A stretch of 64,000 nt of DNA, from positions 373,205 to 437,204 of the forward strand of contig DLLG01000004.1 in NCBI GenBank assembly GCA_002479075.1, written 5' to 3'. Both the position numbers and the translations under genes were made by a program. This stretch comes from Clostridiales bacterium UBA7568. GTDB lineage: Bacteria > Bacillota > Clostridia > Oscillospirales > CAG-272. Shown in pieces: positions 9,254-15,226 of the stretch. Each line of letters opens with the position of its first letter. Positions within the stretch are counted from its first letter, which is position 1. Under the pieces are notes generated by a model. The model searched no databases, was not told where the DNA came from, and saw nothing but the letters and a program-made list of their open reading frames with translations.

Positions 9254-9331
9254 CGCGGAGTAGAGCAGTCCGGTAGCTCGTCGGGCTCATAACCCGGAGG
9301 TCGTGAGGTTCAAATCCCACCTCCGCAACCA
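9254..9331 (+). tRNA. initiator-type tRNA-Met (anticodon CAU), CCA encoded, one extra base in the T stem
   Basis: C1-A72 mismatch (cgcggag / ctccgca). Three G-C pairs close the anticodon stem (cggg-CTCATAA-cccg). T arm reads gtgAgg-ttcaaat-cccac, one nucleotide longer than the canonical 5-bp stem. Confidence 0.8.
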
Positions 9332-9333
9332 AA

Positions 9334-9473
9334 CAAAAAACAGCCCGTCGGGCTGTTTTTTTGTTTTCTTTGCGGTAAAGAAAAGGGATTTGAACGGGCT
9401 CGGTAGTGAATGAGGCGCCTGCGGCGCGTCAGAGCCGAGCCTGACCGAGCGGCGGCGAGCCGCGAGAATTCAA
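9334..9473. repeat. A-type ~140-bp repeat, copy 1 (terminator hairpin plus structured core)
   Basis: Matches 14740-14878 except at roughly ten positions. Contains the motif ctcgg-TAGTGAATGA-hairpin-TCAGAG-ccgag at 9399-9439. Confidence 0.9.
9335..9362. terminator. hairpin terminator after tRNA-Met (A run / T run, usable on either strand)
   Basis: aaaaaa-cagcccg-tc-gggctg-ttttttt. Confidence 0.75.
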
Positions 9474-9491
9474 ATCCCACCTCCGCAACCA
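9462..9491 (+). repeat. duplicate of the 3' end of the initiator tRNA (T loop + acceptor 3' strand + CCA)
   Basis: ttcaaatcccacctccgcaacca (9469-9491) is identical to 9309-9331. The preceding 7 nt are similar but cannot form a T stem. Confidence 0.9.
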
Positions 9492-9558
9492 TTGAACAGG
9501 TCCCAACTTTCCGACCACCGTAATACGGAGTCGGCAGTTGGGACTTTCGTTTATATGT

Positions 9559-9759
9559 CTATATGTTTTCAGACTCCGTTTCAAATTGAAGCGGAGTTTT
9601 TATGTCCAATTTTCTGTGCGGACGCTCTTCATTGAAAAAATGAATGTATTCTTTGACGACTGCTTCCAATTTAAGCGGTGCTTGATATATTGCGTGATTG
9701 CGTTCATAGTACTTTATAACGGCATCTTTGAATTCTTGCGTGTGGATTTTGGGTGACAT
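9559..9759 (-). pseudogene. C-terminal remnant of an IS3-family (rve) transposase
   Basis: ..LEAVVKEYIHFFNEERPHRKLDIKTPLQFE resembles the conserved C-terminal tail of IS3 OrfB proteins. The ORF is only 66 aa with no catalytic domain upstream in frame. A long hairpin (9500-9546) follows it. Confidence 0.5.
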
Positions 9760-10259
9760 TTTGACCTCTCGGTGATTAATATATCACACAGGAGAGATAC
9801 TGTCGGTTCAGCAGTTGTAAAAAACAACTCCATAATCAAAAGAGCTTTCTGAGCCAGAATATGTACGATGCTGATCGCACCTTCATACTCTCGCAGAATT
9901 TGTGCAACAATCTGTTGCACAAATTCTATGACAGCATCGTCCGTCAAATGGTGGAATGCATCAAGGTATATGCCAATAAGTACATCGAGGTTATCTTCGG
10001 CGGCGGGTATGCGGTGGAAGAAACGGTGGAATAAGTAAAAAAGCAACCTGTACCGACAAGATGGTCGATACAGATTGCTTTTTTCATATTGGAGCGGTCC
10101 TATATAACGCAAATACTCTCCGGCAACGGTTTGGGTCTTGCCATTAAAAGATAAATTGTGGATCTGCACGGAAAAACGATTGGTATTCCCCAATCTGATA
10201 AAGAAGTATGGTTTATTAGGTGTGGTTGCCTTCGGGGGATAATCAATATACAATATCAA
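9714..10259 (-). pseudogene. 181-aa ORF of unknown origin, probably a gene fragment
   Basis: TTG start with no SD, overlaps the IS3 remnant in another frame, and I recognise no motif. Kept only because a 181-codon ORF in lower-GC DNA is unlikely by chance. Confidence 0.25.
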
Positions 10260-10351
10260 AACCAGTGTAGCATATCGGCGCCTACGCTATGTTTTTCTTC
10301 GTTATATTCTTAAAATTCAGAAAACAGTCAAATTCTATTTTCGAAAATCTA

Positions 10352-10380
10352 TTGACAACCTTCATTGACGATAGTATAAT
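10352..10380 (+). promoter_or_regulatory. consensus promoter of the MarR-ABC exporter operon
   Basis: TTGACA 10352-10357, 17-nt spacer, TATAAT 10375-10380. Confidence 0.7.
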
Positions 10381-10424
10381 AATGAATGTTCTAATATTAG
10401 AGTTTCTATGATTGGAGGGTGAAT

Positions 10425-12663: not shown

Positions 12664-12676
12664 GGAGGGATGAAAA

Positions 12677-14455
12677 ATGAAGAAAAAAGACAATCAAAAA
12701 GGCATCCGTTCCGCCATTCCGAGAATATCCGGCTATTTGCGTTCCAGCATGGGAATCATTATCGTCGCCTTAATCCTTGCGGCACTCAGTGCCGTTATGA
12801 CAATCATCGGTCCTGATAAGATCGGTCGGATTGCAACGCTGATGTCGGATGGTATTACCGGCAGTATCGACCTTGCGGCAATCGCAAAAATCGGTATTTC
12901 TCTTGCAGTCATCTATATACTCAGCGCACTTTTCAGCTTTATTCAGCACTACACGATGTCTGTCGTCACTCTGAAAATGTCCTACCGTATGCGCGGCGAG
13001 CTGTCTGAGAAGATCAACAAAGTACCGCAGAAGTATTTCAACACCACCTCGCAGGGTGACATTCTCAGCCGCATCACAAACGATGTGTCCACTTTGCAGC
13101 AGGGGCTGACGAACAGTATGCCGACGATCATCAGCGCCGCAACGCAGTTTGTCGGCTGTCTGATCATGATGTTCGTCACCGAATGGCGGCTTGCCCTCAT
13201 TTCCATCGGCGTGACCGTTATCGGTATGTTCCTGACAGTGCTTATCATGTCGAGATCACAGCGTTTCTTCGCAGCGCGGCAAAAGAGCCTTGGTGCGCTG
13301 AACGGGTATGTGGAGGAAATGTATTCCGGTCATGAGGTTGTGCGGATCAGCCGTGCCGAGCGTAAGGTCTGTGCAAAGTTTGACACGCTCAATGCCGCGG
13401 TATACGACGCAAACTGGAAGTCGCAGTTTCTCTCCGGCATGATGCAGCCGCTCATGAACATTATCGGCAACATTGCCTATGTCGCTGTCTGCGTCTTCGG
13501 TTCGGTTCTTGCCATAAACGGCACGATTGAGTTCGGCGTGATCGTTTCCTTCATCCTCTATGTTCGCCTGTTTACCTCGCCGCTGACGCAAATTGCTCAG
13601 GGCATGACCAATATGCAGACAGCATCTGCCTCCGCACACCGCATTTTCGACTTTCTTGAAAGCGAAGAAATGCCCGATGAAAGAGGGAAAACGACCGCTC
13701 TTACCGATGTTCACGGCACGGTCAGCTTTGAGCACGTCCGCTTCAGCTACCCCGATACGCCCGATAAGATAATTATCAAGGATTTCTCCGCCAATGTGCA
13801 TCCCGGTCAGAAGGTTGCTATCGTCGGCCCGACCGGTGCCGGAAAAACAACGATGGTCAACCTGCTGATGCGCTTCTTTGAGATCAACAGCGGAACAATC
13901 AAAATTGACGGTGTTCCGATCTCCGAAATGAGCCGTGAAAATGTGCATAAGTTGTTCAGCATGGTTTTGCAGGACACATGGCTCTTTGAGGGAACGGTCA
14001 GAGAAAACCTCGTCTATAACATGGAGGGTATTACCGACGCGCAGCTTGAAGAAGTCTGCCGAGCCTGCGGACTGGACAAATTCATTCACACGCTGCCGCA
14101 GGGTTTTGACACCGTTCTTTCTGAAAGCGCTAGCATCTCCGCCGGACAAAAGCAGCTTCTCACCATCGCCCGCGCTATGTTACAGAATGCGCCGATGCTC
14201 ATTCTTGACGAAGCCACTTCTTCGGTCGATACCCGTACCGAGCTTCTGATCCAGCGGGCAATGGATGAACTCACGAAAGGGCGCACAAGCTTTGTGATCG
14301 CACACCGCCTTTCCACCATCAAAAACGCCGACCTGATTCTTGTTATGTGCGACGGTGATGTGATCGAGAGCGGAACGCACGAGGAACTGATGCGGCGCGG
14401 CGGATTCTACGCCGATCTTTACAACAGCCAGTTTGAGGATAAAATTGCTTCGTAA
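12677..14455 (+). CDS. ABC transporter ATP-binding/permease protein (heterodimer partner)
   Basis: RBS AAGGAGGG. Walker A GPTGAGKTT, signature ISAGQKQLLTIARAM, Walker B MLILDEATSSVD. Confidence 0.9.
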   Translation: MKKKDNQKGIRSAIPRISGYLRSSMGIIIVALILAALSAVMTIIGPDKIGRIATLMSDGITGSIDLAAIAKIGISLAVIYILSALFSFIQHYTMSVVTLKMSYRMRGELSEKINKVPQKYFNTTSQGDILSRITNDVSTLQQGLTNSMPTIISAATQFVGCLIMMFVTEWRLALISIGVTVIGMFLTVLIMSRSQRFFAARQKSLGALNGYVEEMYSGHEVVRISRAERKVCAKFDTLNAAVYDANWKSQFLSGMMQPLMNIIGNIAYVAVCVFGSVLAINGTIEFGVIVSFILYVRLFTSPLTQIAQGMTNMQTASASAHRIFDFLESEEMPDERGKTTALTDVHGTVSFEHVRFSYPDTPDKIIIKDFSANVHPGQKVAIVGPTGAGKTTMVNLLMRFFEINSGTIKIDGVPISEMSRENVHKLFSMVLQDTWLFEGTVRENLVYNMEGITDAQLEEVCRACGLDKFIHTLPQGFDTVLSESASISAGQKQLLTIARAMLQNAPMLILDEATSSVDTRTELLIQRAMDELTKGRTSFVIAHRLSTIKNADLILVMCDGDVIESGTHEELMRRGGFYADLYNSQFEDKIAS

Positions 14456-14706
14456 AATCGAATTGAAACACAGTCAAGGCGACATAGGCTCACAGATGCT
14501 CCCTGTGAGTCTAACGAAAAAAACAAGCGTTGAGACCGACGCAAACCTTGGATATCGGCACTTGCTTTTTCCTTTTGTTCAAAGGAAGTTGAGATATCTT
14601 TTTCGGTTGACTGCGTTTTTCCGCCTTTCTTATTTCTGCCGATCAAAATCAGTGAAAAAAGTATCAAAAAGCACCGAAATCCCTTATATCATAAGGATTT
14701 TCAGGT

Positions 14707-14740
14707 GATATCTTTTTCAGCGGTGCGATACAAACAAAGC
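14707..14740. repeat. E-box, copy 1 (34-nt conserved box preceding a terminator hairpin)
   Basis: gatatctttttcagcggtgcgatacaaacaaagc compared with 17341-17375 gatatctttttcagtagcgcgattcaaacaaaagc. A third partial copy, gagatatctttttcgg, lies near 14600. Confidence 0.8.
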
Positions 14741-14878
14741 AAAAAACAGCCCGTCGGGCTGTTTTTTGTTTTCTTTACCGCAAAGAAAAGGGATTTGAAC
14801 GGGCTCGGTAGTGAATGAGGCGCCTGTGGCGTGTCAGAGCCGAGCCTGACTGAGCGGCGGCGAGCCGCGAGAATTCAA
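14740..14878. repeat. A-type ~140-bp repeat, copy 2
   Basis: Direct repeat of 9334-9473. The small hairpin ctttaccgcaaag (14773-14785) is the exact reverse complement of ctttgcggtaaag (9368-9380). The motif is at 14804-14844. Confidence 0.9.
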
Positions 14879-14908
14879 CCCCTTTTCAAATTTTAACTTG
14901 TTACATAT

Positions 14909-15050
14909 GTGCTTCTGTTTTGCGTGCGATGGGTATGAATGCACAAAGACAGGGTTATGAGCCCGAAGGGCGAGTAACTCGGAGGGGGAGGCGGTAGTGA
15001 ATGACAGCCTTGGAGGGCTGTCAGAGCCGCCGAACCGACCGCAGCATTTT
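14909..15050. repeat. D-type ~142-bp repeat, copy 1
   Basis: Matches 17391-17534 with about five differences. Carries ggcgg-TAGTGAATGA-hairpin-TCAGAG-ccgcc (14990-15031). Carries gggttatgagcccga (14952-14966), the exact reverse complement of the initiator tRNA anticodon arm at 9281-9295. Confidence 0.9.
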
Positions 15051-15073
15051 CCTATGCAGAGAAAATGCAAGAA

Positions 15074-15192
15074 CGTGAGGTTCAAATCCTTCTCGCCTGC
15101 GGGCTCGGTCACCGTACTGCTCTAAAGTGCCAAAGGGCACTTTATTCACCACCGTACGGCCGTTCCGCCTTGCTCCACTACCTCCGCAACCA
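15074..15192 (+). pseudogene. split copy of the initiator-tRNA 3' half (T arm ... acceptor 3' strand + CCA) interrupted by about 84 nt
   Basis: cgtgaggttcaaatcc (15074-15089) is identical to 9302-9317. acctccgcaacca (15180-15192) is identical to 9319-9331. The intervening 15090-15173 contains the hairpin aaagtgcc-aaag-ggcacttt. Confidence 0.8.
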
Positions 15193-15226
15193 AAAAATCC
15201 TCACTCATATGAGTGAGGATTTTTTT
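15192..15226. terminator. strong bidirectional terminator
   Basis: aaaaaa-tcctcactc-atat-gagtgagga-tttttt. Lies downstream of the split tRNA fragment (+) and of the hydrolase gene (-). Confidence 0.8.

Follow-up and report, generated by a model that had tools for sequence, protein, structure and literature searches.

Fragments of an initiator tRNA gene in a clostridial genome as possible arms of a family of folded, gene-less repeats

The window considered here is a stretch of 64,000 nucleotides from the genome of Clostridiales bacterium UBA7568 (contig DLLG01000004.1, positions 373,205 to 437,204), in which an initiator tRNA-Met gene is followed by fragments of its own sequence and by gene cassettes (Table 1). 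A preliminary description had listed sense, split and inverted fragments of the tRNA gene, and every identity in that list proved exact and far beyond what chance would produce: 9469-9491 agrees at 23 of 23 positions with the T-loop-to-CCA segment 9309-9331, which is the source sequence of the copies and is called b below, 15074-15089 agrees with 9302-9317 (16/16) and 15180-15192 with 9319-9331 (13/13). The split of the latter copy by an insertion was likewise recovered, together with the strong terminator behind it (a perfect 17+17 hairpin), but the length given for the insertion, 84 nt, has to be corrected, since 15090-15179 comprises 90 nt; the net insertion of ~89 nt agrees with a gap of 90 versus 1 nt between two metagenome contigs, L373 and L375. 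The motif GGGTTATGAGCCCGA, described as the exact reverse complement of the anticodon arm (9281-9295), does occur on the plus strand at 14952 and 17435, and its three matches compare with 0.07 expected (0/100 shuffles reached three). The weaker T-arm and acceptor resemblance attributed to the D units around this motif is also real, because the reverse-complemented unit scores 46 when aligned with tRNA positions ~16-75, whereas shuffled sequences average 17 and reach 33 at most. As stated earlier, no other copy has a cloverleaf fold, 9254-9331 being the only tRNA-Met found by ARAGORN.

Table 1. Coordinates of features in the tRNA-fMet region of the window (R1, covariance model of the repeat family)
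Feature	Position	Strand	Basis and remarks
tRNA-Leu (TAA)	9158-9246		Precedes initiator tRNA-Met
Initiator tRNA-Met (CAT)	9254-9331	plus	ARAGORN; Rfam tRNA model, 58.8 bits
Terminator T1	9335-9361	bidirectional	A-tract, hairpin, T-tract; terminator scan of both strands; inverted repeat I1
Hairpin TTTTCTTT-GCGGT-AAAGAAAA	9364-9384	plus	Inverted repeat I3; its two copies are 100% complementary
Module 1, canonical	9385-9491	plus	R1 91.6 bits, E 7e-26; repeat D2
Module 1, 5' arm GGGATTTGAAC	9385-9395		Reverse complement of T-loop and T stem 3' strand
Module 1, core	9396-9468		
Module 1, 3' arm	9469-9491		Exact 23-nt copy of b, CCA included
Cargo 1	9492-14706		Between module 1 and box; Pfam
IS integrase-core (rve) fragment	9559-9759	minus	Cargo 1; Pfam
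Large-serine-recombinase C-terminal tail	9861-10034	plus	Cargo 1; Pfam
MarR gene	10419-10892		Cargo 1; Pfam
Two ABC exporter genes	10909-12663 and 12677-14455		Cargo 1; Pfam
Box ATATCTTTTTCAGCGGTGCGATACAAAC	14707-14740	plus	Right end of cargo; abuts next terminator and module
Second T1 (14740-14768) and module 2 (14790-14887)	14740-14887	plus	R1 81.1 bits
D-a unit	14920-15089	plus	R1 44.8 bits at 14974-15087; alignment to reverse-complemented tRNA
Inverted module copy	15076-15170	minus	R1 35.3 bits, E 2e-8
Acceptor 3' strand and CCA of split copy (15180-15192), then terminator (15192-15225)	15180-15225	plus	
Cargo 2	15301-17024	minus	Alpha/beta hydrolase gene 15301-16326; MerR regulator gene 16323-17024; Pfam
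Terminator (17369-17398) and D-b unit	17369-17543	plus	R1 43.4 bits at 17463-17543

With a probability that we put at roughly 45%, a single repeat family present in five copies accounts for these fragments, which would be its arms. The canonical unit of this family comprises, in order, a bidirectional terminator, an antisense copy of the tRNA sequence from the T-loop to the 3' end, a conserved core of ~75 nt and a sense copy from the T-loop to CCA, and in minimal units only ~137 nt lie between the direct repeats. The hairpin in front of module 1 contains TTGCGG, which reads as a remnant of the inverted acceptor strand, and its loop is flipped in the second copy of the hairpin at 14769-14789. 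A direct repeat (D1, 117 nt at 95%) links the regions of modules 1 and 2, and module 2 has the arms and core of module 1, the 3' arm having decayed to TTCAACCCC. In D-a, an inverted and decayed copy of tRNA-fMet positions ~16-75 (14920-14983), with the exact antisense anticodon arm at 14952-14966, is followed by the core and by the sense copy of T stem and T-loop at 15074-15089. The insertion described previously behind this point is itself a module copy in inverted orientation, which splits the T-arm copy. D-b, ~97% identical to D-a over 146 nt, has its inverted tRNA copy at 17402-17466 and its antisense anticodon arm at 17435-17449, and its core ends after the P1 helix, where the TetR promoter detected by a promoter scan (17545-17573) starts. 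The box is present a second time in the window at 17341-17375, and the motif occupies an equivalent position at C2:344690, in G004 (L042), in G010 (L226) and in another genus (L193); a second copy of the serine-recombinase tail was found by tblastn at C2:345098-345200.

The core is organized as helix P1, an internal loop formed by UAGUGAAUGA and UCAGA, hairpin P2, GACCGAG, hairpin P3 and GAGAA, and these unpaired motifs are invariant across families. Among 118 copies, 91.9% of the cells are paired (70.1% in shuffles) and 584 cells carry double changes (150 in shuffles), with slid controls at 28-44%, and this covariation strongly supports the three-helix fold. On the tRNA-sense strand, G-U pairs exceed A-C pairs by 79 to 36, roughly 2:1. 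The compensatory changes, which are strong in P1, P2 and P3 alike, the invariant motifs and the G-U excess all speak for a non-coding RNA, be it a tRNA 3'-trailer small RNA or a kink-turn-like RNA that binds protein, that would be read through from the tRNA gene with a closing stem formed from the tRNA 3' end; tandem G-A pairs beside a 3-nt bulge may even resemble a kink-turn. Such an RNA is nevertheless unlikely. A strong bidirectional terminator stands before each unit, a scan for promoters was negative in front of the units, the tandem arrays are heterogeneous and include cut-off copies such as D-b, unlike a gene, and cmscan returned only tRNA and tmRNA at E values up to 5 for the window region and up to 1 for eight related loci. 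Stand-alone copies occur in both orientations with respect to neighbouring genes; in L273, two of them run antisense to the genes on either side and one runs sense. Bidirectional terminators, the lack of a promoter-like site and stand-alone copies in both orientations therefore favour a role at the level of DNA. The related suggestion that D units might be transcribed as antisense RNAs against the initiator tRNA has so far gained no support, as the arm is part of a ~60-nt inverted tRNA copy with no promoter in front; in the relative G010, moreover, conservation of the antisense anticodon arm does not exceed that of the adjoining sequence.

The same layout is found far beyond tRNA-fMet. Within the genome of the window (G000), which has 15 R1 matches, units with locally matched arms lie behind the genes for tmRNA, tRNA-Glu, fMet, Val, Arg (two genes), Ser, Pro and Gly, and behind tRNA-Gln a unit is placed after a 1.3-kb cargo, so that nine tRNA genes and the tmRNA gene are followed by units in total; the repeats are exact over 21 and 22 nt at the tmRNA locus (L010) and tRNA-Gly. 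Of 151 genomes sampled from the family, 60 gave R1 matches, representing 45 of 97 genera and with at most 27 copies per genome; outside the family, matches were obtained in 9 of 149 genomes of the class, which belong to five further families and show the same layout. The same arms of tRNA-fMet are seen again in congeneric species (L042, L043, L018), the tRNA-Gly arm GGGAAGCGG is found in four genomes, and arm mismatches are common to several species. Since arms share mismatches across species, most copies are vertically inherited, and recent transposition is evident only for the inverted copy. No match to the repeat was found among the Rfam families (including skipping-rope and other tRNA mimics, Drum and ROOL), phage records and plasmid records searched; if the present reading is right, the family of folded, gene-less repeats copying a tRNA end in both directions is undescribed.

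This distribution bears on the interpretation of the fragments as relics of repeated integration and deletion at tRNA-Met. Several islands would have entered tRNA-fMet by means of tyrosine integrases and then decayed to leave attL/attR fragments, and the direct repeats do run from T-loop to CCA, as at the T-loop integration sites for which a passage of PMC9897764 refers to Williams 2002. Decayed mobile-element genes (the rve fragment and the serine-recombinase tail) lie between the repeats, and the cargo of G004 holds a relaxase fragment. Yet scars leave the antisense arm unexplained, as they do the ~137 nt between repeats, and as a full explanation they are contradicted by a unit that, with its conserved and covarying core, is present at ten loci and recurs in 60 genomes; we consider them very unlikely. 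The preliminary description had itself named unchanged conservation of the arrangement among distant relatives as weakening the scar reading, and the fMet arms shared with other species of the genus have that effect. Its alternative, elements that carry tRNA-derived modules, is right, the arms belonging to one family at at least 10 genes of the genome and in many genera.

Comparison of related loci shows gain and loss of entire, discrete units at the T-loop, each unit bringing its own terminator. For instance, the tmRNA unit of G018 brings its own T1, whereas in the sister species G125 the host terminator T2 directly follows tmRNA, and in other species of the genus a plain terminator stands behind tRNA-Glu. 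The flanks of L373 and L375 are 99.2-99.4% identical and the difference between them is the ~89-nt inverted module, present in L373, absent from L375 and found again in G000; the two metagenome strains represent a filled and an empty pair for this module. The D unit of L373 stands immediately behind the tRNA, while in G000 5.56 kb, absent from both L373 and L375, lie between them, so that the tRNA-fMet locus is an accretion site. Units pile up as mixed tandem arrays with gene cassettes between them, and successive units of single arrays differ in core allele (L002, L028, L030, L038, L039, L048). The nearest core is found at another tRNA type for 34 of 50 copies, and mean core identity amounts to 0.83 where copies at the same tRNA are compared between genomes and to 0.82 where the tRNAs differ; cores are thus swapped between tRNA loci while arms remain local.

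Arms that are stable across species and cores that are shuffled would also fit an origin with no dedicated enzyme, in which replication template switching at the palindromic terminator yields a duplication, an inverted copy and a further duplication of the tRNA 3' end, the core being a hitch-hiking repeat whose spread between loci relies on gene conversion via the conserved T-loop alone. In many loci a complete inverted tRNA 3' end does adjoin the terminator, producing a long palindrome b-T1-rc(b), with rc(b) standing for the reverse-complemented b (L192, L197, L206), the second b is often followed by an identical T1 (L015, L036, L045, L023), and other bodies occupy the same position, a simple hairpin in G014 and larger ones in L366 and L370. 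Furthermore, G000 (98.7% complete) has no match to PF00078, PF01797 or PF01548, hence no reverse transcriptase, as group II introns and retrons would require, no Y1 (RAYT) transposase and no IS110/IS1111 DEDD recombinase such as adjoins bridge or seek RNAs. However, G018 duplicates only b and its unit terminator is unrelated to that of the host, the inverted copy of L373 and G000 is a clean ~89-nt block with a foreign 5' leader, inserted into a T-arm copy that is intact, and gene conversion offers no way to establish new loci, so that template switching, too, is an improbable source of the family.

We therefore return to the reading of the family as short folded DNA repeats without genes, located on the 3' side of tRNA and tmRNA genes, that behave as non-autonomous DNA elements, a view held with the same tentative confidence as that of the five copies. 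Units would be set down at the conserved T-loop by a site-specific recombinase encoded elsewhere, and gene conversion would later homogenise the cores. With each new unit one further copy of the tRNA 3' terminus would become available, after which islands could land, and the MarR-ABC and MerR-hydrolase cassettes would thereby have become bracketed by units in the window. Against the DNA-element reading stand the antisense arm, for which a classical double-stranded attP site has no use, the inverted copy, which has no locally matched 5' arm, and the fact that no enzyme could be linked to the family: no recombinase adjoins any unit in G000, none of its six PF00589 matches adjoins a module, and the cargo of the window, of G004 and of the tRNA-Gln locus holds no integrase. 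To our knowledge, ~137 nt between repeats is smaller than any integrase-mobilised element.

The family shares with T-loop integration systems of tRNA genes the direct repeat from T-loop to CCA, the intact tRNA, tandem accretion downstream and tmRNA as a further target, but differs in its short repeat spacing, in the extra antisense tRNA end and the covarying three-helix core, in one core family serving more than 12 different tRNAs and in having no integrase in or near the units; a tyrosine-integrase element was rejected on the last ground, no integrase lying next to the att site. The ssrA islands of Dehalococcoides leave a 20-bp direct repeat, many of which stack downstream, and encode, on the reverse strand beside their tRNA-like end, a large serine recombinase of ~540 aa (PMC3146451). 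Likewise, G000 encodes a 536-aa serine recombinase in the same placement beside tRNA-Leu (CAG), and serine-recombinase tails are found close to two modules. These islands, however, are kilobases long with their own integration module, and neither a folded core nor an antisense arm has been described for them (PMC3146451). Cis-mobilisable elements (CIMEs) descend from an ICE or IME and are mobilised in trans; here, the repeats flank DNA without recombination or transfer genes, the neighbouring cargo having the relaxase fragment and serine-recombinase tails.

A further and rather doubtful possibility, by analogy with integron attC and the CTX phage attP(+), is that the unit is a recombination site that acts in folded, single-stranded form. 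By pairing with each other, the antisense and sense arms would restore a duplex copy of the tRNA T-arm, a recombinase would swap this stem with the real tRNA gene, and tRNA and tmRNA genes would anchor integron-like arrays whose cassettes consist of cargo, box, terminator and folded site. Common to these systems are an inverted and a direct recombination sequence around a structured spacer at the cassette 3' end, arrays anchored at a fixed site and structure kept above sequence. Differences from integrons are the promoters and regulators carried by the cassettes here and T-loops outside the attC consensus, GTTCGAA and GTTCAAA departing from GTTRRRY (of the box pair RYYYAAC / GTTRRRY) at positions 4 and 7; the best integron-integrase match reached 88.7 bits, the cut-off being 265, and an integron cassette was therefore rejected. 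The conserved internal loops and G-U excess would suit a folded single strand as well as RNA.

tRNA genes are classic landing sites of islands, and their fragments serve to map island borders. If the DNA-element reading holds, many tRNA fragments in a sizeable group of gut and rumen Clostridia would not be such borders, island-mapping and tRNA-annotation tools would misread these loci, and units would create extra landing sites at which regulator-paired efflux and detoxification cassettes accumulate without a visible recombinase; folded sites, if real, would provide a second integron-like route to cassette arrays. The family offers a tractable case of a protein-less element on many tRNA genes with matched arms. 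As short, structured, gene-less intergenic repeats with many copies, homogenised within lineages and partly standing alone, the units also resemble REP/BIME, REPIN and MITE sequences, from which they differ in having no RAYT gene in the genome (which led to the rejection of REP/REPIN), a three-helix core instead of a simple palindrome and one subfamily docked on tRNA ends with target-copied arms. Finally, in a comparison with the single-strand origin ssoA of rolling-circle plasmids and mobilisable elements, a priming site on single-stranded DNA, R1, a model built on a different family, gave no match in the one plasmid covered, pT181 (at best 7.5 bits), and some copies contain a TAGCGA-like motif, which we take to be a resemblance to ssoA only.

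The DNA downstream of the initiator-type tRNA-Met gene (tRNA-fMet) is a stack of units between which two gene cassettes have been inserted, and the family to which these units belong is taken here to consist of non-autonomous DNA elements. The two 117-nt repeats (9357-9473 and 14762-14878) and both D units have in common a core composed of GGTAGTGAATGA, a hairpin and TCAGAGCC. A search with this motif through the whole source genome, G000 (1.83 Mb in 21 contigs, 98.7% complete), located units behind tmRNA and the genes for tRNA-Glu (CTC), Val (CAC), Arg (ACG), Ser (GGA), Pro (CGG), Arg (CCG) and Gly (CCC), with two tandem units at tRNA-Glu (CTC) and, at tRNA-Gln (CTG), a 1.3-kb GNAT cargo followed by a unit. 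From the tRNA 3' end, a unit runs through a terminator of its own, T1 (A-tract, hairpin, T-tract), an antisense arm, the core and GAGAA to a sense copy, often with a second terminator after it. The antisense arm comprises the T-loop and T stem 3' strand of the local tRNA, sometimes its entire 3' end, and the sense copy starts at T54 or T55 and often reaches CCA; the arms thus vary by tRNA and match the local gene (GGGATTTGAA at fMet, GGGCTCGAA at Val, GGAGAATCGAA at tmRNA). No description of this architecture was found in the literature searched, where tRNA fragments are treated solely as island borders (PMC9897764, PMC4383910); set beside a core recurring behind so varied a series of genes, the reading of the window's fragments as plain integration scars is very improbable.

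R1, a covariance model built from 32 simple units, detects five copies within the window, and switching its filters off adds none (see table). The preliminary description had listed fragments of tRNA-fMet here, and its counts were largely borne out: 9254-9331 is the only tRNA-Met-like cloverleaf, 9469-9491 exactly copies the final 23 nt of the tRNA, 15074-15089 exactly copies 9302-9317, and 15180-15192 exactly copies 9319-9331 and is followed by a perfect hairpin terminator. The gap between the T-arm and acceptor copies also exists, its size being 90 nt (15090-15179) instead of the 84 nt reported; what had been called an insertion is an inverted unit interrupting a tRNA-end copy, hence the split T-arm. 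Likewise, GGGTTATGAGCCCGA is indeed the reverse complement of the anticodon stem-loop and lies at 14952 and 17435 (three window matches to the motif against 0.07 expected), and the weaker resemblance noted around it is real, as the 5' parts of both D units form an inverted copy of approximately tRNA positions 16-75 (alignment score 46, shuffle maximum 33). The suggestion that D units regulate the initiator tRNA by antisense pairing finds no support, since the exact 15-mer is part of this decayed 60-nt inverted copy; in another genome (G010), it is no better conserved than neighbouring sequence. The initiator tRNA itself carries an extra A in the T stem 5' strand (9302-9322; GTGAGG opposite CCCAC), and because an identical 3' end recurs in 25 metagenome contigs of diverse gut Clostridia (also L018, L043, L356-L380), this is a conserved feature and no assembly slip.

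Features of the window, with conserved box copies elsewhere
Feature	Position	Strand	R1 score
tRNA-Leu (TAA)	9158-9246		
tRNA-Met, initiator-type	9254-9331		
Module 1	9385-9482	+	91.6 bits
Module 2	14790-14887	+	81.1 bits
D-a	14974-15087	+	44.8 bits
Inverted copy	15076-15170	-	35.3 bits (E 2e-8)
D-b, truncated	17463-17543	+	43.4 bits
Box ATATCTTTTTYRGYGGYGCGATRCAAAC	14707-14740; 17341-17375		
Box, elsewhere in G000	C2:344690		
Box, other genomes	L042 (G004); L226 (G010); L193 (another genus)		

The core's fold has strong support from covariation. Across 118 copies aligned to R1, a fit that biases pair statistics upward, standard pairs fill 91.9% of pair cells, compared with 70.1% in shuffled alignments and 28-44% with partners slid, and both-sided changes number 584 cells against 150 in shuffles. 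Independently of that alignment, helix P2 covaries in raw pattern matches (CAGCC/GGCTG, CATGCC/GGCATG, CCTGCC/GGCAGG, GGCGCC/GGCGC, CGTGCC/GGCACG, TGATCC/GGATCA). On the tRNA-sense strand, G-U pairs outnumber A-C pairs by 79 to 36, one fixed U-G pair excluded. A structured RNA would show pairing of this kind; however, the units are bounded by bidirectional terminators, have no promoter-like site ahead of them and exist as stand-alone copies in both orientations, features of the sequence that speak for an element working at the DNA level, perhaps in the form of a folded single strand, rather than for a strand-specific RNA, a reading considered unlikely. The unpaired, conserved core motifs (C/T)TGACC and GAGAAT do lie 17-18 nt apart (e.g. 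9438-9475), which equals sigma-A promoter spacing, and a promoter there would point into the tRNA-end copy. As a promoter (TTGACC/CTGACC, 17-18 nt, GAGAAT) this pair was judged weak, given a poor -10 box and a first hexamer that in many cores reads ACGACC. No small ribozyme motif, the hammerhead included, fits as judged from the sequence, and R1 had no match in pT181, the single plasmid with which a single-strand origin was considered. No Rfam family matches the units, and BLAST with the consensus unit gave no match in GenBank phages or PLSDB plasmids.

Gain or loss of a unit is seen in two metagenome contigs, L373 and L375, whose flanks are 99.2-99.4% identical and which both carry a D-type unit directly behind tRNA-fMet. 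The T-arm-to-CCA copy is unbroken in L375, whereas in L373, as in G000, it contains the inverted unit of ~89 nt, so that the two are a filled/empty pair; no 9-bp T-loop target-site duplication was seen there. The alignment of L373 covers window 8751-9349 and resumes over 14909-15197; the 5.56 kb with modules 1 and 2 and the cargo 1 between them is therefore extra in G000. The core pattern has no match in three species of the source genus, two of which (G003 and G008) have a plain terminator at the tRNA-Glu locus. At the tmRNA of G018, the terminator of the unit bears no relation to that of the host, and just 21 nt are duplicated; in its sister species, G125, the host terminator stands directly behind tmRNA. 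This G125 locus (L230, 1600-2040) shows the tmRNA end, host terminator and start of the flank duplicated around a decayed unit, the core of which is broken by a further insert of ~90 nt.

Cores are also exchanged between loci. Successive units within arrays carry differing core alleles, the nearest core lies at a different tRNA type in 34 of 50 copies, and mean core identity is equal for orthologous and non-orthologous pairs; the arms, unlike the cores, retain locus-specific mismatches across species. Terminator and core move jointly between certain loci (Val/Glu, Arg (ACG)/Ser (GGA) and tmRNA/Gly). For non-autonomous DNA elements, a putative recombinase would place the elements at the T-loop, the placed elements would then amplify, and gene conversion via the conserved T-loop and core would homogenise them. 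Retro, RAYT and bridge-RNA mechanisms were rejected because G000 has no reverse transcriptase, Y1 transposase (RAYT) or IS110 gene. An integron integrase was not found in G000 either, which has only two Xer-like recombinases and three phage-type integrases, none adjoining a unit. An enzyme-free origin through template switching is a rather doubtful alternative. The hairpin TTTTCTTT-loop-AAAGAAAA (9364-9384 and 14769-14789) has its 5-nt loop inverted between copies (GCGGT vs ACCGC), which looks like the loop flip of a small palindrome.

Cargo is flanked by a tRNA-end copy and, on its right, by the terminator and unit that follow. The box ATATCTTTTTYRGYGGYGCGATRCAAAC is conserved at the right-hand end of each segment, immediately ahead of that terminator, and may mark where a separate cargo-carrying element ends. 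In cargo 1, an IS fragment and the tail of a serine recombinase accompany a MarR gene and two genes for ABC exporters; cargo 2 comprises a hydrolase and a MerR gene, and the cargo of G004 combines a relaxase fragment with genes for an AAA ATPase and MerR. An integrase is present in no cargo. Headless C-terminal tails of large serine recombinases, 80% identical to each other in nucleotides, lie a few hundred nt past two different units (window 9861-10034 and G000 C2:345098-345200), and a full 536-aa serine recombinase is encoded on the reverse strand immediately after tRNA-Leu (CAG) (G000 C8:213259-215052). In the literature searched, stacked T-loop repeats accompanied by a serine recombinase have their nearest precedent in the Dehalococcoides ssrA islands (PMC3146451), whose described layout matches that at tRNA-Leu (CAG).

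Of 31 close relatives, 12 contain the core pattern (reversed control pattern, 0 matches). Within the family, R1 has matches in 60 of the 151 genomes sampled, spread over 45 of 97 genera and reaching 27 copies in a single genome. In the rest of the class, 9 of 149 genomes match; they belong to five other families, and in them the core is shorter and the layout alike, behind tRNA-Ser, Pro and Tyr. Named records bearing the pattern are mostly uncultured gut or rumen Clostridia (Oscillospiraceae, Acutalibacteraceae, Eubacteriales, Christensenellales, Faecousia), and matches in other phyla are to be expected by chance with 16 specified bases. Of 46 further matches in other genera, 28 are preceded on the same strand, at a distance of no more than 450 nt, by an annotated tRNA or tmRNA, and an unannotated tRNA end is visible at several of the rest.

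Predicted viral contigs carry stand-alone, intergenic cores that are prefixed by GTAGCGAAGCGG and closed by a generic stem; relative to the genes beside them, these cores lie in both orientations. Such 'type 2' cores away from tRNAs (viral contigs L273, L251, L298, L250 and L280; also L009, L012 and L049-L052) lie, several per contig, amid other GC-rich intergenic repeats, e.g. CCCCTTGAGGGGAAGG and CTGATGAGGTGTC. A truncated unit behind a bare acceptor-end fragment, CTCTCTCCCGCCA, is present in G000 (C10:53490-53620) and in L016, with the break inside P3 at the same point in both genomes (…GACCGAGCGGC|AAATTTGTATAGTC). Elsewhere, other bodies fill the same slot between inverted and direct tRNA-end copies, namely a plain 20-bp hairpin behind tRNA-Glu in G014 (L055, L058) and bodies of ~230 nt behind tRNA-fMet in other gut strains (L366, L368, L370); the slot architecture is therefore wider than the R1 core family.
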